Shown: in pieces, positions 49,950 through 64,000 of the stretch
Layout of the letters: every line of letters starts with the position of its first letter
Position numbering within the stretch: the stretch's first letter is position 1
From: a virus
Virus record (IMG/VR): IMGVR_UViG_3300028840_006907
Coordinates: 288,001-352,000 of that record
Strand: one strand, 5' to 3'
DNA: 64,000 nt
The notes under the pieces: generated by a model
Told to the model about the DNA's origin: nothing
The model's database searches: none
What the model saw: only the letters and a program-made list of their open reading frames with translations
Program-made: the position numbers and the translations under genes

Positions 49950-50816
49950 ATGGACAAAAAATATGAAGACCGAATGCTTGTCGTTTTTATCTTAGTGGGT
50001 CTAGTTGGTGGGTCACTGTTCTATTTCCTTAAAGATGGTCAGCCTCTCAGCTCAATTTTCATGACTTTCGCTCTATCAAGTATCCTCTATCGATTCCTGG
50101 GTGGAATTGGCCAAGGCACAAAATTCAGTGTCGGAGCATTTCGGTTAGGTGGTAGTGCAGCCTTCATGATCGGCTGTATCTTTTTTATCAACGAGTACAT
50201 TTTCCCAAAACCAGAAATCAACACCATTGTTTTAAGTACTCCCCAGGATCGATGGGTTCCTGTTAAATACCCTACAGGTGAGTATGTGAATGTTAAGGTA
50301 TTAACTCCTTCTGGAGATACTATTATTCATGGTATAAGTAGTGTAGAAATGGATGCTTTAAAAAAAAGGGAATACTGCATCACAAAAGAAGGGGAGAATT
50401 TTTATATCTGTTCTAATGCTGATTCAACGGTAATAGGCCATCTTAAGTTTGAAGATGTTTTTAAAGCTATTGAAAATGATATCCATATCACAGTCCAAGA
50501 TTTTCGGGTTTTTAAATTATACCCTAATCCTATAAATGACCCAAAAGATCAAGAAAAGAAATATAAAACTACTGATTCACTTGATGCTGTAAGTCAGACT
50601 TTTCCCATAGTAATCGAAGTCGATAAAACTAATATGAATATAAAGACAAAGGATGACAGTTTATTAACATCAGATGTACCTCGTAGTGAAAAATTCTATT
50701 TAGTTGATATTGAAAATGAGTATTTTATAGTTACAATATTACATGCTAATTTAGAAACATCAGAAAGTAAATGGTATTCTGAGTTTCTTGTTGGAAAAGT
50801 ATCTATTAATCGATAG
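49950..50816 (+). CDS. membrane protein with C-terminal soluble domain
   Basis: RBS aaaggagg; three N-terminal hydrophobic helices (MLVVFILVGLVGGSLFYF, IFMTFALSSILYRFLGG, GGSAAFMIGCIFFI). Confidence 0.55.
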   Translation: MDKKYEDRMLVVFILVGLVGGSLFYFLKDGQPLSSIFMTFALSSILYRFLGGIGQGTKFSVGAFRLGGSAAFMIGCIFFINEYIFPKPEINTIVLSTPQDRWVPVKYPTGEYVNVKVLTPSGDTIIHGISSVEMDALKKREYCITKEGENFYICSNADSTVIGHLKFEDVFKAIENDIHITVQDFRVFKLYPNPINDPKDQEKKYKTTDSLDAVSQTFPIVIEVDKTNMNIKTKDDSLLTSDVPRSEKFYLVDIENEYFIVTILHANLETSESKWYSEFLVGKVSINR

Positions 50817-50823
50817 AGGTAAT

Positions 50824-51252
50824 ATGAGCAATATGAAAATTGCAATAGCTTCTTATATGCGTTATACAGTTGTTTTAGCCAACTTGAAAGAGCATTTCAA
50901 AAGAGAACTCGATCTAGCTGGCCTATTTGATAAAGACTCCGATTATAATGGAATGATAGGTAACGCTGTTATGGACCTGTGTAAAGTCTTCTCTGATCAG
51001 GGCCATAGCGGGTTCTCCGCGAACTGGGTTCTGAAATTGTTCGATACTCTTGGTCACTATAAAACGTTGACTCCTATTACAGATAATCCGAAAGAGTGGA
51101 TGAAGGTTACAGATGGCCTCGGTAGAGATGAACCGGTCTGGCAGAGTAATCGAAATCCTTCCCTTTTTTCTAATAATGGTGGAAAGAGTTATTATGATGT
51201 AGACGATAAGAAGCGTAAGAAGATCCGCTCTAAAAAGTTTAAAAAGAAATAA
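50824..51252 (+). CDS. hypothetical protein
   Basis: ATG 50824 follows upstream stop (track start 50788 overlaps); basic C-terminal tail. Confidence 0.5.
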   Translation: MSNMKIAIASYMRYTVVLANLKEHFKRELDLAGLFDKDSDYNGMIGNAVMDLCKVFSDQGHSGFSANWVLKLFDTLGHYKTLTPITDNPKEWMKVTDGLGRDEPVWQSNRNPSLFSNNGGKSYYDVDDKKRKKIRSKKFKKK

Positions 51253-53408: not shown

Positions 53409-55859
53409 TTATATTTTATTATTTTTTCTAAGGAGAGCTATCTGACGTTTAATCCATCGAGGAGTTTCTTCAAGAGTTTCAGCCATTTGATTTCTTGTCA
53501 TCTTTCCACGATTATCTATTATGAATTGGAGCTTTTCTTCAGTCTTTCTATCTTTGGTACAACCAATAGGGTTTTTTGTAGATAATGTACCTTTTTTTTG
53601 TAAGAATTTTATTTGAGATTTAACCCATCGCTCTGTTTCATTGAGAGCTTTAGATAATTCTTTTTTAGTTTTATTTTTATAATTAGTGATTATATACTGC
53701 GTTTTTTCAGGGGTTCTTCTACATTTTGTTGAGAATTTAGAAATCTCTTTTAAATAGGTAAATTTCTCAGTGGGTTGTTTAATATTTATATCTTCAATAC
53801 ATTTTGAATTATATATTTCTTTTTCTCTTTTAGGATAAGGTTTAGTAACATAATTTTTTAATTTGTTAATTTTTTTCTTATCTCTTTTATTTTCACCTAT
53901 TAATAAGACATATTTATGTTTTCTTTCAGTAATAAATTTTTGAGCTTCAGATAATATATTTTTATTCCAATTATTCCATTGAACTTTAATTCCTTCTGGT
54001 ATGGTACTCATATTTTTAAAACCATTTTCTTTAAACCATTCCTTTTGAGAAATAATCCCTTGATTTTTACACCATTTTTTAAATGCTGATGTACGTTTTA
54101 GAGATTGAGCTGAAAAAGTCCTATTATTTTTAATGGAAGGATGTTTATATAAGTATGAACTTCCAAAGTTATTTCCTAGATAATCAAATCCACAAGCTTG
54201 GTAAATAGTCCCTATTTCAAGAGCTTTAGGATCAGCATAACCTATGAAAGCTCTTTTAGAAGTGTTATTAGCCATCCAATTACAAGCAAACCTTATAAGA
54301 CGGCTACCCAGGTTTTTCGGGGTCCATGAGGCAGTGGCACCTCTTTGAATTAAAGCTTCATATTTGGGAGTATCTTTACCTAGAATTTTGGAATATGCTG
54401 TGGGTTCATTTATAAATAATACTCCTGCGAGAATATTATTGTATCTGGCTGTGAAGCACCATTTTGGTATTACTCCAATTGTTCCTAACCATTCATATTT
54501 TTTTATAAATTGGACCATTTCATTATTAAATTTTTCTTCAGATAATGTAAAAGAAGTAGCTTTTAAAGAAGAGTGATTGAAATCGATATTTTTTTTATCT
54601 TCATCAATCCATTGAAGTTTCTTTTTATATTGGTGGCATATAAAAGTGGTCTTGTTTTTACTGTTAATTTTATTTTTTATTAAATCAATGATAATACCTT
54701 TTCGGATAGCTTCTTTTACATCATCAGACCAAAATCTAATCAAATTGGGTATATTTTTATTTTGGATTTCATCATTCTTAATATTTTCTTTTATTTTTAA
54801 TGCCCTTGGAGACGTATCATTTTCTCTTATTTCTTTACCATGCCAATAATTACCATCATATTGTACCCATAAGTTATAGCGAGGCATATAGAAATCAATT
54901 ACATGTTTAATAATTGGGTGCATAACTTGATGTTCTACAAAAGGATCAAATACAATAAGATAATTAAAAAAGTTATTTTCTTCATCTGAGGATGAGAAGG
55001 AATTATTTAGTTTAACTGTTTTATATGTTTTTTCTTTTATTTCAACATTCTGTTGGGGATTTTCAACGCCATATCTTTCAATATTAGTTTCAGTGATTTT
55101 TTTCTTAATCTCTGGAGATTGGAATACATTGTCAACCCCGTATCTTGATTGTACTGTTACTTTAACTTTTCTTTTTACTTCTTTAGATTGAGAGGGGTAT
55201 TCTACTCCTCGTTTTTCAATATTAGATTGACGGGATTTTTCTTTCATTGAGTTTAGTTGAGTAGAATATTCTACGCCATAACGTTTTTTAATAGTTTCGT
55301 TATTATGTTTAACTATATCTTCATTTATTTTATCTCGATTCCTTCTTAATCCTAGTTTAATAGCTCTTTCTCGGATGGCTTTCCAGGTCCTGTTTTCAAA
55401 GTAGAGCATAATAAATTCCATAGAATTCTTTTCATATACTTCTTTTAAAAGATCATCTTCTTTGGGTGACCAGAAGTCTTCCCTAGCAGGAGCGCTTTTA
55501 CCACCATCAATCATTTCTTGTTTAATTATTTCAGGATTTCTTTGAAGGTTTAATTTTTGAGCATTACTTCGGATGCTTTGCCATGATCGATTCTTGAATT
55601 TAGAAAGGATAAATTCTTTTGAATTATTTTCATATATATTTTTAAGAATATTTATCTCTTCGGTTGTCCAGGAATCTTTTCTTGGTCCTCTTTTTTTACG
55701 GTCTTCATTTATAAGGTCAGGATTACGGTGAAGATTTAGCTTACGTGCTTTTCTACAGATGGTTGTCCAAGATTTATTTAATTTGGAGATAATAAATTCT
55801 TTTGAATTATTTTTATATATTTCTTTTAATAAATTTTCTTCTTCTATTTTCCAACGCAT
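53409..55859 (-). CDS. free-standing homing-endonuclease-like mosaic protein (Myb/SANT x3, HNH-associated repeats, PD-(D/E)xK-like core, Mom/GNAT-like domain, C-terminal HTH repeats)
   Basis: ATG 55859 with RBS aagagg (track start 55916 less likely). Three W-x2-EE-x2-L...Y...W...I repeats. Four (R/K)(Y/R)GVExxxQ repeats. VIDFYMPRYNLWVQYDGNYWHG. NLGSRLIRF...FIGYADPKALEIGTIYQACGFDYLG. Confidence 0.65.
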   Translation of the reverse strand: MRWKIEEENLLKEIYKNNSKEFIISKLNKSWTTICRKARKLNLHRNPDLINEDRKKRGPRKDSWTTEEINILKNIYENNSKEFILSKFKNRSWQSIRSNAQKLNLQRNPEIIKQEMIDGGKSAPAREDFWSPKEDDLLKEVYEKNSMEFIMLYFENRTWKAIRERAIKLGLRRNRDKINEDIVKHNNETIKKRYGVEYSTQLNSMKEKSRQSNIEKRGVEYPSQSKEVKRKVKVTVQSRYGVDNVFQSPEIKKKITETNIERYGVENPQQNVEIKEKTYKTVKLNNSFSSSDEENNFFNYLIVFDPFVEHQVMHPIIKHVIDFYMPRYNLWVQYDGNYWHGKEIRENDTSPRALKIKENIKNDEIQNKNIPNLIRFWSDDVKEAIRKGIIIDLIKNKINSKNKTTFICHQYKKKLQWIDEDKKNIDFNHSSLKATSFTLSEEKFNNEMVQFIKKYEWLGTIGVIPKWCFTARYNNILAGVLFINEPTAYSKILGKDTPKYEALIQRGATASWTPKNLGSRLIRFACNWMANNTSKRAFIGYADPKALEIGTIYQACGFDYLGNNFGSSYLYKHPSIKNNRTFSAQSLKRTSAFKKWCKNQGIISQKEWFKENGFKNMSTIPEGIKVQWNNWNKNILSEAQKFITERKHKYVLLIGENKRDKKKINKLKNYVTKPYPKREKEIYNSKCIEDINIKQPTEKFTYLKEISKFSTKCRRTPEKTQYIITNYKNKTKKELSKALNETERWVKSQIKFLQKKGTLSTKNPIGCTKDRKTEEKLQFIIDNRGKMTRNQMAETLEETPRWIKRQIALLRKNNKI

Positions 55860-55962
55860 ATGAGTACCTCTTTTTAGTATATTACTTATTATAACAGGTA
55901 TTAGAGTTATTGTCAATATTTCATTTAATAAATATGGAATTCATTAATTTATAGGGAAAAAG

Positions 55963-56316
55963 ATGGAAATTGAAATTTATGGAAAAGAATTTGTTTCTTG
56001 TAATATTTTAAGGGCTGAAGTAGGTACAAATTGCCCACAGGGGGGAGATACAGGACATGGTGGTCGAACTATTTTAAGATTGATTGATGAAGCAGCTACT
56101 GATATAAGTATAAAAGTAGATGGTCAGCCTTTAGGTAGTATAAAAACTTTGGAAATATTATTAGGTGGCGATACTGAGTGCGACACTTTTATGAATGCTC
56201 TTAATTTTGCCTTGAATGTATTAAAAGATCATAATCCAAATTATGAAATGGATCCACATATAAGAGGTTCTGGGAAGGGATTGATACAAAAAGATTATAA
56301 AATAGAAACATTATGA
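55963..56316 (+). CDS. hypothetical protein, upstream partner of ATPase
   Basis: 117 aa; GTNCPQGGDTGHGGRT Gly-rich loop; stop overlaps ATPase start (ATGA). Confidence 0.5.
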   Translation: MEIEIYGKEFVSCNILRAEVGTNCPQGGDTGHGGRTILRLIDEAATDISIKVDGQPLGSIKTLEILLGGDTECDTFMNALNFALNVLKDHNPNYEMDPHIRGSGKGLIQKDYKIETL

Positions 56317-56861
56317 TTACAAAGATAGAATTATTAGAAAAATACAGAACTTTAAAACCGTTTGTTATGGAGCCTAATCTAGGAGTCAATCTTATTGTTG
56401 GTGAGAATGGTTCGGGTAAATCCTCATTGTTAAATATTATAAAGGAAAATGCTCCTGAGGTAAGATTAGAAATTGAAGGTACTATAAATTATTACCATTT
56501 TGATACGGAAAAGGACAATCCTCGAACTCAAGGCACTCTTCCATTTAATGCTCCTGGTGATGTTTATGCCTATCATCTGACGTCACATTTCCAGAGTCAT
56601 GGTGAAGTACTATTTCCTATTTTAAATCTTATGAGAACTTTTGAGAACAGGATTTTATTCTATGATGAACCGGAGAGTGGGGTCTCGATTAATAATCAGT
56701 TAAAGGCATGTACTGCGATAAGAAAAGCGGTAAGGAATGGTTGTCAACTTTTTATTGCGACTCATTCTTATATATTTATAAAAAAATTTAAAAAAGTCTT
56801 TGATTTAAAGACATATCAATTTGTAAAATCAGAGGATTGGTTATCTCAATTTAGGATATAA
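56313..56861 (+). CDS. minimal ABC/SMC-type P-loop ATPase (182 aa)
   Basis: Walker A GENGSGKSSLL, Walker B + D-loop ILFYDEPESGV, H-loop FIATHS. Confidence 0.75.
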   Translation: MITKIELLEKYRTLKPFVMEPNLGVNLIVGENGSGKSSLLNIIKENAPEVRLEIEGTINYYHFDTEKDNPRTQGTLPFNAPGDVYAYHLTSHFQSHGEVLFPILNLMRTFENRILFYDEPESGVSINNQLKACTAIRKAVRNGCQLFIATHSYIFIKKFKKVFDLKTYQFVKSEDWLSQFRI

Positions 56862-56862
56862 C

Positions 56863-57000
56863 ATGATACCAGAATGGGTTTATAGATTAATGGTTGAAGA
56901 TCGAGAACGATGTATGATAAATCATTTAGAAAAAAGGAATTATATTGACGAGGAAGAGATAAAAGAGAATACTCTTTCTGATATCTCTGAAAAGGATTAA
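56863..57000 (+). CDS. 45-aa hypothetical ORF
   Basis: ATG 2 nt after ATPase stop; MIPEWVYRLMVEDRERC...; no other support. Confidence 0.25.
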   Translation: MIPEWVYRLMVEDRERCMINHLEKRNYIDEEEIKENTLSDISEKD

Positions 57001-57073
57001 AATATGACTCTCATGGATTTACATAAATAAATTTTATTTCACATATTTTTTAACTTTACATAAGGAGACATAC

Positions 57074-57913
57074 ATGCACAAAATAATAGTCTTATTATTA
57101 GTTTTGTTAGTGAATGTTTTTTCTGTAACGCCTGAATATTTGTGGGTAGGTTCCTACACTATTGAGCATTACAATAATGGTGTTTATTTGGCTTATAGTC
57201 ATAAGCAAGCTTCTGCTTTTACTTCTCTAATGAGTTGGCTTATTAATTGGAAAAATCTTGATATTGATTATAAGTGGAATCATAACTATAAGGATGCTGC
57301 TGTTAATGAGACAGTATTCGAAGGACAGGATTTTAATATTAATGAATTTCTCATTTTTGTTAGTCATGGTTATCGGGGAGGAATGGTCATTAATAAATAT
57401 AATACTTCGACTACTTATGCAATGGATATCTCTAATCAATATCCTAATACCAGATCATGGGATTTTGGTAATTCTTATACCAAATGGATTATCATGGGTT
57501 CTTGTCATACAATCCTGGATGAGCATGTGACTGTGTGGGGGACCACTTTTTATTTTTACGATCAGATTTTTGATGGTGTGCATAGTATTATGGGCTATAA
57601 ATCTGATGGTAGAAACGTTTATGATGGTGGTCCGATAGGAAGATTCCCATTAGAGTGGGTTCATAATCGACGTTCTATTTGGAATGCATGGCGTGTGTCG
57701 GTCCGGGAAGAAGTATATGAAGGTTGCAACCAAGATGTGACACCTTCCATGGTAGGTGTTTGGGGAACTGTGAATGGGCAAGATTGGGATGCAGATACTG
57801 AATTGTTTTATGCTGTGTATGATGCCTTAACACCTCATAATGAAACTTTGGGGGCTTGGATAGGTTATGGTATGATGTATCGTCATGTTGAATATGGCGA
57901 TCCGGAATATTAA
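57074..57913 (+). CDS. secreted protein, possible clan CD (caspase-fold) cysteine peptidase
   Basis: Signal peptide MHKIIVLLLVLLVNVFS; hydrophobic strand + His-Gly (LIFVSHG) and hydrophobic strand + Cys (WIIMGSCH) in dyad order. Confidence 0.4.
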   Translation: MHKIIVLLLVLLVNVFSVTPEYLWVGSYTIEHYNNGVYLAYSHKQASAFTSLMSWLINWKNLDIDYKWNHNYKDAAVNETVFEGQDFNINEFLIFVSHGYRGGMVINKYNTSTTYAMDISNQYPNTRSWDFGNSYTKWIIMGSCHTILDEHVTVWGTTFYFYDQIFDGVHSIMGYKSDGRNVYDGGPIGRFPLEWVHNRRSIWNAWRVSVREEVYEGCNQDVTPSMVGVWGTVNGQDWDADTELFYAVYDALTPHNETLGAWIGYGMMYRHVEYGDPEY

Positions 57914-57930
57914 AAAAGGGAGATAAAGAG

Positions 57931-58848
57931 ATGAAAAAAGTATTTATTATAATAGTATTGTTTTGTGCTTATGGATTTTCAGAAATATCTGTGTCAGATA
58001 TTGTTAAATCATTTGTGGATAATCCAAAGACTTTCAGATCTAGATTGTTGAAATATGAAGTTATTCCAGACCATGTTGATTTACCAATAGAATTTGTCGA
58101 TGATGAAGATGAAAGTTTATGGAAAACTAAGAAAAAGGTTAATTATATAATAGATTATTCAAAGATGTCGAAATGTGCTGATAAATTTAGAGATCTTTTT
58201 GCATATGAAGGATTGACTGAATATCAGTATATGGATCAGTCAAACCTTTTGGTATTTAATCATCCTAATGGTGGCCGTGAAGTATCCGCACAGATTGTCA
58301 GGGATTTGATTAATACTAGAACAGAGGCAGAATTAAAAAATATAGGATTGACTTTAGGTGAAAAGCTCTTTGCCATTTTTAAGAATAAAATAGAATTTCA
58401 ATGTACGGAAATAGAGTATACAAGGGGTCATACGAATTTAAACCAAATAAGTAAATACTCTATTCGATATAGGCGTATTTTTAATGATGGTATTGTCTTA
58501 CAGAATATTTCCTATATAATGTTAACTCTGGAAGGACTTGGTGATTTGATTGAAGTCGAGATTAAATGGCCTAAATTTAAAAAATGTGAAAATATAAAGA
58601 ATGGCATTTTAATTAAGGACGCTTTAATATTAGCTAAACAAGAGTATAATGAAATCGCTTCTCGAAAAGTTGATGAATTCTTAAATATTGAAGCTATCGA
58701 TAGACTTTCTATAACTGGATCTTGTTTTGGATGGACTCATGAGATCATTGATGGTGTTAATTTATTAAAACCTAGTTATGGGTTTGTGGGAATAGCTGAA
58801 ACAAAGAATGGTAAAAAAGAACATCATTATATAAATATCGATAAATGA
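57931..58848 (+). CDS. secreted hypothetical protein
   Basis: Signal peptide MKKVFIIIVLFCAYGFS; RBS gggag. Confidence 0.5.
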   Translation: MKKVFIIIVLFCAYGFSEISVSDIVKSFVDNPKTFRSRLLKYEVIPDHVDLPIEFVDDEDESLWKTKKKVNYIIDYSKMSKCADKFRDLFAYEGLTEYQYMDQSNLLVFNHPNGGREVSAQIVRDLINTRTEAELKNIGLTLGEKLFAIFKNKIEFQCTEIEYTRGHTNLNQISKYSIRYRRIFNDGIVLQNISYIMLTLEGLGDLIEVEIKWPKFKKCENIKNGILIKDALILAKQEYNEIASRKVDEFLNIEAIDRLSITGSCFGWTHEIIDGVNLLKPSYGFVGIAETKNGKKEHHYINIDK

Positions 58849-58888
58849 TCTATTTTTTTGATACAGTTTTGTAGAAATGGGCTAAATC

Positions 58889-59614
58889 TTGCAACAACAA
58901 ATTTTCGGGTGTTTAAAAGATACTCTTTCGATTCTGATTGTTTTAAAAGATCCTACAGTTGTTAAAAAGATTATAAGGTTTATTCAGCCTACTTATATTT
59001 ATAATATCACAATAGTTAATTCGGTTAAAGGAGCACAGGAAGTTCTTGACAAAGAAAGAGTTCATCTCTGTCTTCTGGGTTCTGAATTTAAAGAATTTGC
59101 TATTATAAATAAATATTTATATACTTCGTTTATAATATTTGTAATTGATGATATAAATTATCATGAGATTTTTAATTATGTGAAATTAGGAGTTAAGACT
59201 CTAATTGACAAAGGTAGTATTAACTTCTCTTTGATAAAAATAATTAATCATTTTTCTCTTAGGAATGTTATTAATCCATTCTATAGAAGAGGTTTCGAAG
59301 ATATTTTATCTGTTTCCACTGAAAAATTAATTGAAAGAAATCCTAGTGGAGTAACTGACTGGGCTTCTGATTGTGGTATATCAGAAAGACAATTAAGATG
59401 GATATGGAATATAAGATTTAAAGTAAAAACTAGAATCGTATTATTTATTTATAAAATTTATAAAACTGCTTTTGATGTTAAAAACCCTTTAGACAAAAAG
59501 ACCTTCGAACAATTAACTTTTTTCTTTATTTCCCATAAAAATGAAATAATAGATTATATCAATTACTTACAATTAAAAGATGTTCCTGTCTACAAAATGT
59601 TCTTTCAATCGTAA
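58889..59614 (+). CDS. possible pseudo-receiver / HTH regulator
   Basis: TTG start (uncertain); ILIVLKD...HLCLLG resembles a receiver domain lacking the acidic pair; GVTDWASDCGISERQLRWIW resembles an HTH. Confidence 0.3.
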   Translation: MQQQIFGCLKDTLSILIVLKDPTVVKKIIRFIQPTYIYNITIVNSVKGAQEVLDKERVHLCLLGSEFKEFAIINKYLYTSFIIFVIDDINYHEIFNYVKLGVKTLIDKGSINFSLIKIINHFSLRNVINPFYRRGFEDILSVSTEKLIERNPSGVTDWASDCGISERQLRWIWNIRFKVKTRIVLFIYKIYKTAFDVKNPLDKKTFEQLTFFFISHKNEIIDYINYLQLKDVPVYKMFFQS

Positions 59615-59695: not shown

Positions 59696-59941
59696 ATGGC
59701 TTTTGAAGTTGAATATTTTGAATTGTCACCGAGCGATGCAACAAATGAGTATGTCTCATTAGGGGGTGTTCCAGTGGTTGCTGATAATGTTGCAATAGAT
59801 CTTGTGGGAGGTACAGCCCAAGCATTAACGAATGATTTTGCCGTTGATGGAACAAGAATTGTATGGGATAGTACATCCTATAATTTAAATGGACTGCTTG
59901 CTACTGGTGACAAAATGAGAGCTATCTACGATAGATCCTAA
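59696..59941 (+). CDS. small fibre-associated protein
   Basis: RBS aaggag; 81 aa; immediately upstream of fibre gene. Confidence 0.5.
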   Translation: MAFEVEYFELSPSDATNEYVSLGGVPVVADNVAIDLVGGTAQALTNDFAVDGTRIVWDSTSYNLNGLLATGDKMRAIYDRS

Positions 59942-59978: not shown

Positions 59979-62900
59979 ATGGCTCAAGTAGAAAGAAAAT
60001 GGATCCAGGACCAAGCAATTTCCAATGAAAAAGTAGATCCCACTGATATTTATACCATTACAGGTTTAAGAGTTGATGAAACCAATGCCATTGGGAGAGT
60101 AGGAATAGGTTTATCTAGCCCTTTGGATGCTCTTCATATTCAACGAACTGATTCTTCTTCTGGAATGATGCTGGATCTTAGTGATGGTACAAATGGTAAA
60201 CTTTATAAGATATATTCAGGAGCTAATGGTTTACTGAATTTTACTGATGCTACAGATGGGGGCATATTCACCTATGGTGAATCAGGTTCGATAGGTCGAG
60301 TTGGTATCAATACCGCATCTATCCAAGATCACCTTCATGTAAGTTCCCCTTTAACAGATGCTGCGTTAAGACTTGATTTAGATGATGGACTCAATGGTCG
60401 AGCTTATCGTCTTGTCTCAGATACAGATGGAGCTTTTAGGATAATTGATGTTGATGCGGGTAATGTAAATAGACTTCAGATTGCTAATACAGGAACTTTA
60501 ACTGTCTCAGGTGATGCAACTTTTGATAGTAATTTTCAAATTAATGGTACTGTTACAGTTATTAATACTGAAATTGTCATTGCAGATCAATTAGAAATAA
60601 ATCAAACTGACAATCAGGCAGCATTGATAGTAAGTCAAGATACAGGTGGTGCTACAGCCACTGTAATGAGAATTGAAAATGCTGGCACAGGCCATGCTTT
60701 AACCGTAGATTCTGGTAATGTAGGTATTGGTACTTTAACTCCGGCTGCTCCTCTTCATGTTCAAGGTGATATAATTACTGCCAATGGGTATAATATCGGA
60801 GACACCACTCATAGAATTGGTACTCTTTGGATGGCTTCTACTGTAGATTATTTGACTGACCTTAATTTTAGTTCAGGTGGAACAAATGTTACTTTTGCAA
60901 CCGGTGGAAATGTCGGGATAGGTTCTGGTACTCCTACCCAGGCCCTGGATGTGGTTGGAACTATAGAAAATACAGGTGATATCATAACAACTGGTTCTTA
61001 TCCTTCCGGTTTAATAAGAGGAGCTTATTTAACGATAACTACTGGAAATTCGACTTTCCAAGGAAGAGTGGGAATTGGTGTTACAAGTCCGTCTTATCCT
61101 CTTCATGTTGGTGGAGACATTTATTCCAATACAGGTAATATTGTAGCCACTGCTGGAACTGTGACAGGTGGATCTGGTTTAATAGCTACTACAGGTGGTG
61201 TTATAGCCTCTGCTGGAAATATAACAGCGACCTTGGGTGATCTCATCGCTTCTGCGGGTTCTGTAACTGCTAATACAAATGTAACTGCTACGAATGGAAA
61301 TATAGTTGCTTCTAATGGAAATATTTCTGCTACGAATGGTACAGTAACAGGAGGCACCGGTTTAATAGCTACCACAGGGGGTGTGACCGCTACGAATGGA
61401 AATATAGTTGCTTCTAATGGAAATATTTCTGCTACGAATGGTACAGTAACAGGAGGCACCGGTTTAATAGCTACCACAGGGGGTGTGACCGCTTTAGCTG
61501 GTAATATCTCTGCTTCGGCTGGTTCTGTAACTGCTAATACTAATATAACAGCCACGAATGGTAATATTGTTGCTTCTAATGGAAATATTTCTGCTACAAA
61601 TGGTACGGTAACAGGAGGCACCGGTTTAATAGCGACTACAGGTGGTGTAACCGCTACGGCTGGAAATATCACTGCTTCAAATGGTAGTTTTGTCGCTCCA
61701 AATGGAATTGTAAGTGTAGGTTTTGGCGTTATAGCAGCAGGGGGTGATATATTTGCCCAAACGGGTAAAGTAGGAATTTCAACCAGTTCTATTGCAGGAG
61801 GTTATGTATTACATGTTCAAGGAAACGCTTATTGTTCAGGTCAAGTAGATACAAATACTTTGGATGTAGGTAGTGGCAGTTTTACTGTAAGTGCAATTGG
61901 TGCAACAAATATCGGACCAGGCTGGTTAACTTTCGGTCAACATATGTCTGGTGGAGGACAGATTGGATCTGCTTCTACCGTAAATATTGTTTCAACCAGT
62001 GGTGCAACTATGTCAGGAGGTTCAGGCGCTGTCTCAATTACTACTAATAACAGTGGTACGCCAAGTGCGATTAATGTGACCTCTGGAAATAACACCGGAT
62101 CAGGAGTTGGTGGAGCACTCAATCTGAATGCAGGTGATTCGGGAGGAGCTGGTACAGGTGGTGCAGTAACTATTACTGGAGGAACGGCTTCAGGTGGTGG
62201 ATCTACAGGAGGAGACATTTTGCTGCTTCCTGGAAGTGCTGTCTCAAATGGGCGCGTTGAGGTAGGCACAGGTGCCTCTTCGAAAAATTTATGGGTTTCA
62301 GGTAGTGTAACTATAGAAGGAGCTAATTCTGCTTTTGCTCTTTCGATTAATAATACGAATTATGTAGGAGCTTATTGTGCAATAGCAGGAGCATCAACGG
62401 TAGCTGGCTGGTTTGAAAATAGTGGTTCAGATTCAACATCTATGTTTGTGCAACAATTAAATACTGGTAAAGGGCTTTTCGCTACTGGATTAGGATTAAA
62501 TTCTTTTGCAGGATTTTTCCAAAGTACGGGCTATACAACTCTTAGGTCAGAAGTGAGTGGTACTGGAGGTGGTGATTATGCTGTACATGCAATATGTACA
62601 AATGCTGGATCGAGTGCCACTTCAGCAGCAGTTTTTGCTCAAAATTGGGGAGGTGGAAAAGCTATTCAGGCAACCGCAGGAACTGGAACTACTATTCAAG
62701 GGTCAAACACTAATGGTACTGCTATTTATGGGTCTCAAGCAGGAACCTCTGGTAGAGCAGGACGTTTTAGGTGTAATGCTGGATCTTATGCATACAATGC
62801 TGTTGAGGTAGAAGTGACTTCAGGTACAGGAGCTTCAAAAGGGATCTTAGTTAATTATACCGGTTCTGGTAATGCTATAGAAGTAAACGGTGGTAGTGGC

Positions 62901-63665
62901 TATGGTATTGAAGCATACCAAAGTGCAGGAACAGTTTATCATGGGACTAATTCAGGAACTACAGGTAGAGCTGCTTTATTCGAAACTTCTAATACCAGTT
63001 TTAATGGTACTATAGTTGAAATAAGTAGTAATACAACATCACTGAATAATAATTGTTTAGTTTGCAATCATTCAGGTAGTGGTACAGGTCTTACTGTTAA
63101 CTCCAATGCAGCGGGTGCTAGTTTTGGTATTAACAGCTTTATGCCGGGTGTCTCTGGAACTGGAAGAGCTATTAATGGCTACTGTGTTTCAGCATCAGGA
63201 TTTGCCGGTTATTTTACTGGGAATGTACATATTGCGGGTACTCTTTCTAAAACTGCGGGTGGTTTTAAAATTGATCATCCAATTGAACCTGAGACAAAGA
63301 ATTTAGTTCATAGTTTTGTTGAAAGCCCTGAGATGAGGAATGTCTATTATGGACGGGCTGTGACTCATGATGGGACAGCATCTATAGGTCTTCCGGATTG
63401 GTGGGTTACATTAAATGGGTCTAATAAGGAAGAGTATAATTATAGTTTAACTACTATTGGTAAATACAGCAGATTATTTATTAGTAAAGAAATAGAGAAC
63501 AATCAATTTGAAGTCTCTTCATTGGATGGAGACTGTACTTTTTCCTGGACTATCTCAGCCATTCGCCATGATACTTATGCTGAGAGCAACAGAATACAAG
63601 TAGAAAAGAACAAAACACAAGAAGAAATAGATGATTATAAAAAAGAGCATGGCATTTCTGTCTAA
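59979..63665 (+). CDS. tail-fibre-like protein (1228 aa) with Gly/Thr/Asn/Ala-rich repeats
   Basis: RBS aaaggag; repeated VGIG...P...LHV motifs; 34-aa repeat ATNGNIVASNGNISATNGTVTGGTGLIATTGGVT x3; long beta-rich G/S/T/A core; conserved C-terminal FKIDHP...VESPEMRNVYYG module. Confidence 0.8.
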   Translation: MAQVERKWIQDQAISNEKVDPTDIYTITGLRVDETNAIGRVGIGLSSPLDALHIQRTDSSSGMMLDLSDGTNGKLYKIYSGANGLLNFTDATDGGIFTYGESGSIGRVGINTASIQDHLHVSSPLTDAALRLDLDDGLNGRAYRLVSDTDGAFRIIDVDAGNVNRLQIANTGTLTVSGDATFDSNFQINGTVTVINTEIVIADQLEINQTDNQAALIVSQDTGGATATVMRIENAGTGHALTVDSGNVGIGTLTPAAPLHVQGDIITANGYNIGDTTHRIGTLWMASTVDYLTDLNFSSGGTNVTFATGGNVGIGSGTPTQALDVVGTIENTGDIITTGSYPSGLIRGAYLTITTGNSTFQGRVGIGVTSPSYPLHVGGDIYSNTGNIVATAGTVTGGSGLIATTGGVIASAGNITATLGDLIASAGSVTANTNVTATNGNIVASNGNISATNGTVTGGTGLIATTGGVTATNGNIVASNGNISATNGTVTGGTGLIATTGGVTALAGNISASAGSVTANTNITATNGNIVASNGNISATNGTVTGGTGLIATTGGVTATAGNITASNGSFVAPNGIVSVGFGVIAAGGDIFAQTGKVGISTSSIAGGYVLHVQGNAYCSGQVDTNTLDVGSGSFTVSAIGATNIGPGWLTFGQHMSGGGQIGSASTVNIVSTSGATMSGGSGAVSITTNNSGTPSAINVTSGNNTGSGVGGALNLNAGDSGGAGTGGAVTITGGTASGGGSTGGDILLLPGSAVSNGRVEVGTGASSKNLWVSGSVTIEGANSAFALSINNTNYVGAYCAIAGASTVAGWFENSGSDSTSMFVQQLNTGKGLFATGLGLNSFAGFFQSTGYTTLRSEVSGTGGGDYAVHAICTNAGSSATSAAVFAQNWGGGKAIQATAGTGTTIQGSNTNGTAIYGSQAGTSGRAGRFRCNAGSYAYNAVEVEVTSGTGASKGILVNYTGSGNAIEVNGGSGYGIEAYQSAGTVYHGTNSGTTGRAALFETSNTSFNGTIVEISSNTTSLNNNCLVCNHSGSGTGLTVNSNAAGASFGINSFMPGVSGTGRAINGYCVSASGFAGYFTGNVHIAGTLSKTAGGFKIDHPIEPETKNLVHSFVESPEMRNVYYGRAVTHDGTASIGLPDWWVTLNGSNKEEYNYSLTTIGKYSRLFISKEIENNQFEVSSLDGDCTFSWTISAIRHDTYAESNRIQVEKNKTQEEIDDYKKEHGISV
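61287..61490 (+). repeat. perfect 102-bp in-frame tandem duplication inside the fibre gene
   Basis: 61287-61388 and 61389-61490 are identical at all 102 nt; a third copy at 61551-61652 differs at 9 positions, all synonymous. Confidence 0.9.
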
Positions 63666-63695: not shown

Positions 63696-64000
63696 ATGTC
63701 ACAAGTGTTGAGAAAATGGATAGCTGATCAAGCCGTTAATAATGATAAAATAGATCCTACCGATACCTATACAATTACAGGATTGAGAGTCGATGAGACG
63801 AATGCCGTAGGAAGAATAGCAATGGGATTAAGCAGTCCATTAGATGCTATTCATATTAGGAGGACTGATACTTCTGCTGGTATAATAATGGATCTTGATG
63901 ATGGAGGTTCAGGACGATCTTATCAAATAACTTCAGATCAAAGTGGCTTTTTAAATGTAAGAGATAGAGATCTCGATGTTGATCGATTGACTTTATATTC
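63696..64000 (+). CDS. second tail-fibre-like protein (partial, runs off window)
   Basis: RBS aaaggag; MSQVLRKWIADQAVNNDKIDPTDTYTITGLRVDETNAVGR parallels MAQVERKWIQDQAISNEKVDPTDIYTITGLRVDETNAIGR of 59979. Confidence 0.7.
   Translation, partial: MSQVLRKWIADQAVNNDKIDPTDTYTITGLRVDETNAVGRIAMGLSSPLDAIHIRRTDTSAGIIMDLDDGGSGRSYQITSDQSGFLNVRDRDLDVDRLTLY

Follow-up and report, generated by a model that had tools for sequence, protein, structure and literature searches.

The region analysed here, called the window below, is a 64,000-nucleotide stretch of the IMG/VR virus record IMGVR_UViG_3300028840_006907 (positions 288,001 to 352,000 of that record). Towards its end, on the plus strand, it contains an open reading frame (ORF) of 1228 amino acids at 59979-63665, which is preceded by a Shine-Dalgarno-like AAGGAG and whose exact protein is found on three public contigs, the longest being of 469,617 bp. 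The protein is composed of a conserved N-terminal domain with repeated GxVGIGxxxPxxxLHV motifs (residues 1-330; 59979-60968), presumed to be the attachment end; a shaft made up of some 29 repeats of seven (sometimes six) residues, located by manual register and a motif scan (residues 383-590; 61125-61748); and a β-rich C-terminal domain with an FKIDHP...VESPEM motif (residues 1060-1228; 63156-63662), presumed to be the distal tip and receptor-binding end. An earlier reading of this DNA, based on its letters and ORFs only (here, the sequence-only reading), had called it a fibre gene. It matches no family in Pfam, PHROG or NCBIfam, but its architecture, with a conserved N-terminus, a variable distal part and GxVGIGxxxPxxxLxV motifs that weakly match the fibre protein Bd2133, fits a virion fibre, and we use the name here. 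The subject of this work is a set of three copies of a 102-bp unit within the shaft.

All three copies lie on the plus strand. Units A (61287-61388) and B (61389-61490) are adjacent and identical at 102 of 102 bases. Unit C (61551-61652) differs from them at 9 bases, each of these being at codon position 3 in the frame of the fibre gene. The translations of A, B and C are all ATNGNIVASNGNISATNGTVTGGTGLIATTGGVT, a sequence of 34 residues that divides into five shaft repeats of 7+7+7+7+6. As base changes, the nine differences read T>C, A>T, A>T, G>A, A>G, T>G, C>T, G>T and G>A, all of them synonymous. Both the coordinates and the counts are exactly as the sequence-only reading gave them, and Tandem Repeats Finder independently reports a period of 102 bp with 2.1 copies. 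By the Nei-Gojobori method, A and C differ at 9 of 29.3 synonymous sites (proportion of synonymous differences, pS, 0.31) and at 0 of 72.7 non-synonymous sites (the corresponding proportion, pN, being 0), and the chance that nine differences out of nine would be synonymous under neutrality is about 1.3e-5. The same reading had concluded that the unit is under purifying selection and that the duplication is very recent. The first conclusion is borne out by the nine synonymous against zero non-synonymous changes, and by the same pattern in the independent repeats of related fibres; the second is borne out by the 0/102 differences between A and B, together with a one-copy allele in an otherwise identical background of 23.6 kb.

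Units A and C are each preceded by a plus-strand linker of 60 bp, encoding 20 residues. Linker 1 (ATLGDLIASAGSVTANTNVT, 61227-61286) stands before unit A as the first part of an old super-unit, and linker 2 (ALAGNISASAGSVTANTNIT, 61491-61550) stands before unit C. Since a linker precedes both A and C, the older repeat must be one of 162 bp. The two linkers differ at 17 nucleotides and 5 amino acids (pS 0.43, pN 0.23), and have thus diverged in protein sequence, whereas units A and C have not. The identity between A and B continues for 3 nucleotides to the right (GCT) and for none to the left; with so little surplus identity at the junction, the recent event cleanly duplicated a single 102-bp block, from one heptad start to a similar one. 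Searching the window with the unit using blastn also revealed an older, degenerate partial copy at 61154-61201 (plus strand), 81% identical to positions 51-98 of the unit (pS 0.63, pN 0.19), and a second degenerate copy flanking the array at 61653-61713.

The number of units differs among public assemblies. The best database match to the fibre protein (P0001) has 1194 residues, this being 1228 minus 34. The one-copy form (1194 residues) is found on two ENA contigs, of 469,021 and 469,260 bp, and the two-copy form (1228 residues) on three contigs, including one from JGI (3300017963; 388,651 bp) and one from NCBI/JGI (469,617 bp). A literature search linked metagenome 3300017963 to a JGI project of David Valentine and turned up no paper on this genome. 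The shorter of the ENA contigs (L001; ENA ERZ27256798, k141_1708087), in which A or B is missing, was compared with the two-copy JGI contig (L002), and removal of one 102-bp unit from L002 gives L001 exactly over 23,585 bp. Over 14 kb, the window differs from these two contigs by a single base substitution, at position 58533, which is A in the window and T in both L001 and L002, and which produces E201D in a 305-residue ORF (57931-58848). The allele of the window at this site is also present on the 469,617-bp NCBI/JGI contig. The window and L002 both carry two copies yet differ at this single-nucleotide polymorphism (SNP), and they are therefore separate assemblies.

An analysis of k-mers shows how far short reads can tell the two alleles apart. 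At k=119-141, the one-copy allele has 13-35 private k-mers and the two-copy allele 115-137 (35 and 137, respectively, at k=141), so that assembling either form as a de Bruijn contig should require reads that carry it. With k≤99, the k-mers of the one-copy allele are a subset of those of the two-copy allele, and alleles with at least four copies are indistinguishable from those with three. It is most likely that both the one-copy and the two-copy alleles exist in sequenced populations. The suggestion in the sequence-only reading that the number of units varies is made probable by the presence of both the 1194- and the 1228-residue proteins in public assemblies, and is put no higher than that because copy number tracks assembly source. 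Exact-pattern scans for the left junction in IMG/VR and in the JGI metagenome collection found no match, and the copies scanned therefore lack this genome. Protein-guided scans gave no close match: IMG/VR gave one weak locus (L003), the GTDB genomes gave none, and the metagenome collection gave five loci with 40-47% identity, which have heptad repeats only. The 34-residue unit is present in none of these loci.

The repeats of the shaft follow the consensus A-[ST]-x-G-x-[IV]-x, and Tandem Repeats Finder detects the corresponding sub-period of 21 nucleotides (7 residues) across the whole repeat region. In an AlphaFold2 (AF2) monomer model of residues 330-700, there is a β-strand every seven residues or so, with a predicted local distance difference test (pLDDT) score of 70-80 over the heptad shaft (residues ~375-566) and low scores elsewhere. 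Foldseek, run with this model against the PDB, returned only generic β-helix proteins with E>0.1, and phmmer found nothing meaningful for the shaft or the tip among PDB sequences. The predicted fold of the C-terminal domain has phage tailspikes and the tips of tail fibres as its best structural matches. The sole PDB sequence match of the whole protein is Bd2133 (8OND), a weak phmmer match of residues 235-378 (E 0.0046) that stems from the GNVGIG..P...L motifs. In scans against Pfam, PHROG and NCBIfam, neither the whole protein nor any of four sub-regions gave a match, for Pfam even at E≤5 on the sub-regions. Judged by eye, the N-terminus (MAQVERKWIQDQ...) is hydrophilic and has no hydrophobic leader.

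The N-terminal part of the protein is conserved. In a HMMER scan of 1.84 billion protein cluster representatives, about 20 aligned from residue 1. Over the N-terminal ~330 residues, 14 metagenomic homologues (762-1162 residues long) are 47-71% identical, and their distal parts differ. Thousands of giant fibre-like proteins contain the module at residues 230-330 (GNVGIGTxxPxxxLHV...), with up to 31 repeats of it in a single protein. Tips have been exchanged among the homologues, and include the FKIDHP domain, the S74 chaperone (PF13884, carried by homologue P0006) and others. The N-terminal domain, the seven-residue shaft and the FKIDHP tip make up an uncharacterised fibre family that matches no family in Pfam, PHROG or NCBIfam, and the heptad shaft is a type of repeat not previously described.

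Three further features of the gene can be mentioned here. An ORF of 183 residues runs antisense to the shaft (61121-61672, minus strand). We reject it as a gene: on that strand A and C differ by one amino acid change (F/L), compared with none on the plus strand, and homologues exist for the plus-strand ORF only. It shares its wobble positions with the plus-strand frame, and so is kept open by the composition of the repeats, of which it is a by-product. The shaft (residues 383-590) contains 12 N-x-S/T sequons against 7.0 expected from shuffles (P ~0.02); the repeat copies are non-independent, which leaves this as weak support for N-glycosylation. Lastly, a 21-nucleotide tandem repeat (1.9 copies, 84% matches) is found at 63588-63627, in the lysine- and glutamate-rich C-terminal tail of the fibre gene.

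The related contigs L004 and L006 keep the fibre gene within a module consisting of a Tad3-like gene, a 301-residue ORF, an 81-residue ORF, the fibre gene, an ORF of ~100 residues, a 92-residue ORF and a protein of ~1300 residues. The neighbours within this module are 48-81% identical in L004 and L006, and the fibre itself can be aligned only over its first ~480-500 residues. The 81-residue ORF (59696-59941, plus strand) always lies directly upstream of the fibre gene in the relatives; it is 73% identical in L004 and 67% in L006, has no family match, and could be a partner or chaperone of the fibre. The relatives have their own repeats. In the fibre of L004, the units are of 32 residues, with adjacent copies that differ at 4 nucleotides (all synonymous; pS 0.14, pN 0) and at 26 nucleotides (pS 0.79, pN 0.066), and in those of L006 and L007 they are of 52 residues (pS 0.24, pN 0.045). 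Such in-frame repeats with low pN indicate that in-frame tandem duplication, followed by synonymous decay under strong constraint on the protein, is the normal way in which these shafts grow. Among the homologues and a local paralogue, shafts are between about 7 and about 29 heptads long.

The paralogue is a second fibre gene that begins at 63696 on the plus strand and runs off the end of the window at 64000; in full, on L002 (13718-17194), it encodes 1158 residues. It shares the N-terminal domain, with a stretch of 565 bp that is 85% identical to 60400-60964; its shaft, of about 7 heptads, is short, and its distal part is unrelated. Recombination between the two paralogues could occur. The genome thus encodes two tandem fibres, of 1228 and 1158 residues, together with a 741-residue Laminin_G_3 protein. 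The latter lies downstream of both fibre genes (L002 18031-20256) and has two Laminin_G_3 (concanavalin-like lectin) repeats; it is not found at that position in L004 or L006, and could be an additional adhesion protein. It is worth adding that one protein, P0020 (718 residues; L005 10001-12157), was matched only through its heptad repeats, which form many near-identical blocks. It is encoded on a 158-kb contig whose neighbouring genes (Myosin_head, a weak Pox_A32 and RING-finger genes) suggest a giant eukaryotic virus. On the basis of the motif, the seven-residue shaft may be shared across very different viruses, or may have arisen by convergence.

The exact fibre protein is carried on contigs of 469,617 and 388,651 bp, with sister contigs of 469,541, 469,260 and 469,021 bp, and the existence of several independent contigs of about 469 kb suggests that this is the size of the complete replicon. 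The window has a GC content of ~32% and no transfer RNA gene; its genes are arranged in long same-strand runs with many start/stop overlaps of 4-8 nucleotides, and Shine-Dalgarno-like motifs precede 34 of its 66 ORFs, including the fibre gene. Genes for a Mom-like/HNH fusion protein and a Tad3-like protein are found in the surroundings of the fibre gene. A megablast search with 56-64 kb of the window against GenBank phages found no match, and two large ORFs next to the fibre gene, searched against phages by tblastn, gave one short match to a 'tail protein' only. The N-terminal domain of the fibre was found in none of 185,579 GTDB genomes. We infer that the genome is that of a very large and very divergent bacteriophage, which is what it looks like, and that the fibre protein is a trimeric virion fibre.

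Other parts of the window may be described briefly. A glycan-biosynthesis island of ~35 kb occupies 4336-39759 of this phage-like genome. It encodes a GT2+GT1+methyltransferase fusion, a UDP-glucose dehydrogenase, two epimerase/dehydratases, a formyltransferase, a DegT aminotransferase, NeuB, a CMP-type cytidylyltransferase, several methyltransferases, a radical SAM enzyme, a GT10-like fucosyltransferase and further GT2s, and judged by these annotations it looks like a complete nonulosonic-acid pathway. The Tad3-family (anti-Thoeris-like) gene is at 50788-51252 and is 66% identical in L004. At 53409-59614 are six to seven genes that are absent from the syntenic L004, and which look like an accessory island inserted just upstream of the fibre module. 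They comprise an 835-residue Mom-like + DUF7487/HNH fusion on the minus strand, a 117-residue ORF, a 182-residue protein resembling a fragment of an AAA_15/AAA_21 ATPase, and ORFs of 279, 305 and 241 residues. The surrounding genome of ~469 kb, with its sugar island, is arguably of more interest than the repeat.

We propose, with a probability of about 0.7, that the three 102-bp copies are building blocks in the shaft of a long and probably trimeric fibre, which has grown by in-frame tandem duplication in at least two steps and whose copy number is variable. In an old first step, a block of 162 bp, comprising the 20-residue linker and the 34-residue unit, was duplicated to give units A and C, which have since gained substitutions at about 0.3 per synonymous site, with no change to the protein. 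In a second and very recent step, the 102-bp unit alone was duplicated, to give A identical to B. The resulting perfect and adjacent 102-bp direct repeats (204 bp in total) are a target on which replication slippage or unequal recombination can act, making a unit easy to gain or lose. Slippage and unequal recombination between perfect copies would change the number of units far faster than point mutation does, and such a rate fits the observation that the indel is the sole difference in 23.6 kb. On this proposal, the sequence of the unit would be constrained by the folding and packing of the shaft, and the number of units would be nearly free. Each unit is expected to lengthen the shaft by ~0.8-2.4 nm, the upper figure (~2.4 nm) applying to an intertwined triple β-helix (five rungs of 0.48 nm each) and the lower (~0.8 nm) to the single-chain solenoid of the AF2 model (~3 strands per turn, 1.6 turns). 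An insertion of five strands should be tolerated in a shaft with three-fold symmetry, since adding strands in any whole number does no more than permute the chains. The effect of one unit on function is probably small.

Several points weigh against the proposal. The one-copy contigs are all from ENA, with MEGAHIT-style k141 names, and the two-copy contigs are all from JGI or NCBI, so that copy number co-varies with the pipeline; L001 and L002 may be derived from the same reads. The fold of the shaft is taken from a monomer model of medium confidence with no significant PDB match, and the trimer is putative. No capsid, terminase, portal, tail-sheath or other tail gene was recognised in the window. 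Finally, one unit makes up only ~3% of the chain, and its gain or loss may have no phenotype.

The first of these points is the basis of a different explanation, that there is one fixed number of units and that one of the pipelines either collapsed the copies or kept a minority path. The complete separation of the forms between ENA and JGI/NCBI is what this would produce, L001 and L002 are otherwise 100% identical and have T in common at 58533, as expected of assemblies from the same reads, and the graph at k≤99 cannot separate the alleles. However, private k-mers exist for each allele at k=119-141, and reads containing such k-mers are normally needed for a contig labelled k141; moreover, each allele has been assembled at least twice, the two-copy form in two assemblies that differ by a SNP. 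We consider an assembly artefact to be rather unlikely, and it would in any case leave untouched the duplication itself and the synonymous third copy. Tandem repeats also undergo gene conversion, and A and B could be old copies that have been kept identical by concerted evolution. The lower pS between A and C (0.31) than between the linkers (0.43) could reflect some partial conversion in the past, the counts being small. Conversion would nevertheless have had to erase every difference between A and B and yet leave nine in C, which is only 60 bp further on, and the adjacent units of L004 have diverged (pS 0.14 and 0.79), showing that homogenisation is not general. A one-copy allele in an identical background is explained directly by an indel and not by conversion, which we judge to be very improbable as the origin of the identity.

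The identity of the protein is a separate matter. It could be an adhesin-like fibre, secreted or displayed on the cell surface by a bacterium or another mobile element, as are the Bdellovibrio MAT fibres and those Bacteroidota surface proteins that have the same C-terminal domain. The only PDB sequence match is indeed to a bacterial fibre, Bd2133, the C-terminal domain is also found in proteins with N-terminal signal peptides (P0017 and P0018), and no hallmark gene of a virion was recognised in the window. Against this, the N-terminus has no hydrophobic leader by eye, the N-terminal domain is absent from 185,579 GTDB genomes, the neighbouring genes are Mom-like, Tad3-like and homing-endonuclease-like, several independent contigs of ~469 kb suggest a complete small replicon, and the best structural matches of the tip are phage tailspikes and fibres. 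Taken together, these observations make a cellular adhesin improbable. Four other candidates were considered and rejected. The locus is not a phase-variable on/off switch, given that the 102-nucleotide unit is 34 codons and that both alleles (1194 and 1228 residues) stay in frame. It does not resemble the target of a diversity-generating retroelement, in that the nine differences are not adenine-specific and all are synonymous; no search for a reverse transcriptase was made. A collagen-like phage fibre with G-X-Y triplets would have a period of three residues, and the period here is seven (21 nucleotides). A trimeric autotransporter adhesin is not indicated either, neither the YadA anchor nor the Hep_Hag/YadA head being matched in Pfam, even at E≤5 on sub-regions.

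A bolder extension can be imagined, in which the gain and loss of units is under selection rather than being neutral drift, and acts as a quickly reversible switch of length that maintains a mixture of fibre lengths in the population of a giant phage. The synonymous divergence of the older copy would then serve to stabilise some units against recombination, leaving one pair 'hot', and the ~35-kb sugar island might decorate the Asn/Ser/Thr-rich shaft. Fibres of mixed length would reach the receptor through host surface layers of varying thickness. We hold this to be a long shot. The more immediate consequences are twofold. The locus is a clean natural example of the lengthening of a shaft, with an old duplication that is identical in protein sequence, a new one, and the alleles from before and after in genomes that are otherwise identical. 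In addition, the repeat region is a site at which short-read assemblies of this genome disagree, and gene lengths and the clustering of proteins there need to be checked against reads before they are relied on.

Among known systems, the phage tail fibres and tailspikes with a modular N-terminal anchor and a C-terminal receptor-binding tip, such as the tailspike of cyanophage Pam1 (7EEA), the tail-fibre-like protein of P-SSM2 and the R2 pyocin fibre, offer a close parallel in overall plan. As in these, a conserved particle-proximal N-terminal domain is followed by a variable distal part, and the distal domain has the predicted fold of known phage receptor-binding tips. The protein differs from them in having no Pfam, PHROG or NCBIfam match, and its location in the virion is presumed. 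The mosaic adhesive trimeric (MAT) fibres of Bdellovibrio bacteriovorus are similar in being long, with β-helical segments that are punctuated by V-G-x-x...P-x-x-x-L 'capping loop' motifs, Bd2133 (PDB 8OND) being a trimeric intertwined β-helix fibre with capping loops (PMC10769870). Both families also combine a conserved proximal part with swappable tips, some of which end in the S74 chaperone. However, MAT fibres are bacterial and displayed on the surface, whereas the protein described here is leaderless by eye and belongs to a phage-like genome, and the duplicated seven-residue shaft has no counterpart in the solved MAT fragments. The similarity is too weak for a claim of membership. Trimeric autotransporter adhesins of the YadA/BadA type, which have variable numbers of stalk and head repeats, resemble it as repetitive trimeric fibres (the trimer being putative here) and in their short-period repeats, which are rich in G, N, A, T and S, and one homologue (P0021) is labelled 'trimeric autotransporter adhesin' by JGI; the difference is that the fibre protein has no YadA anchor and no Pfam match to Hep_Hag or the YadA head.

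For the process, rather than the protein, there are two precedents among phages. In the tape measure protein of TP901-1, which contains repeats, deletions and insertions change the length of the tail, and the authors suggest that the repeats facilitate duplication and deletion (PMC5099701); the head-filament gene of phiCbK (gp76) has been expanded by tandem duplication (PMC3556154). Like the present fibre, both have tandem repeats that are in frame and that can vary in number while function is retained, and for both the authors invoke the duplication or deletion of repeats as the source of change. They are other proteins with other folds, the tape measure being α-helical and gp76 a glycine-rich filament, and in the present case natural one-copy and two-copy alleles are seen directly in environmental assemblies. 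The growth of a fibre shaft by tandem duplication is, then, a real, ordinary and well-documented process, of which this locus is a new instance in an uncharacterised fibre family.

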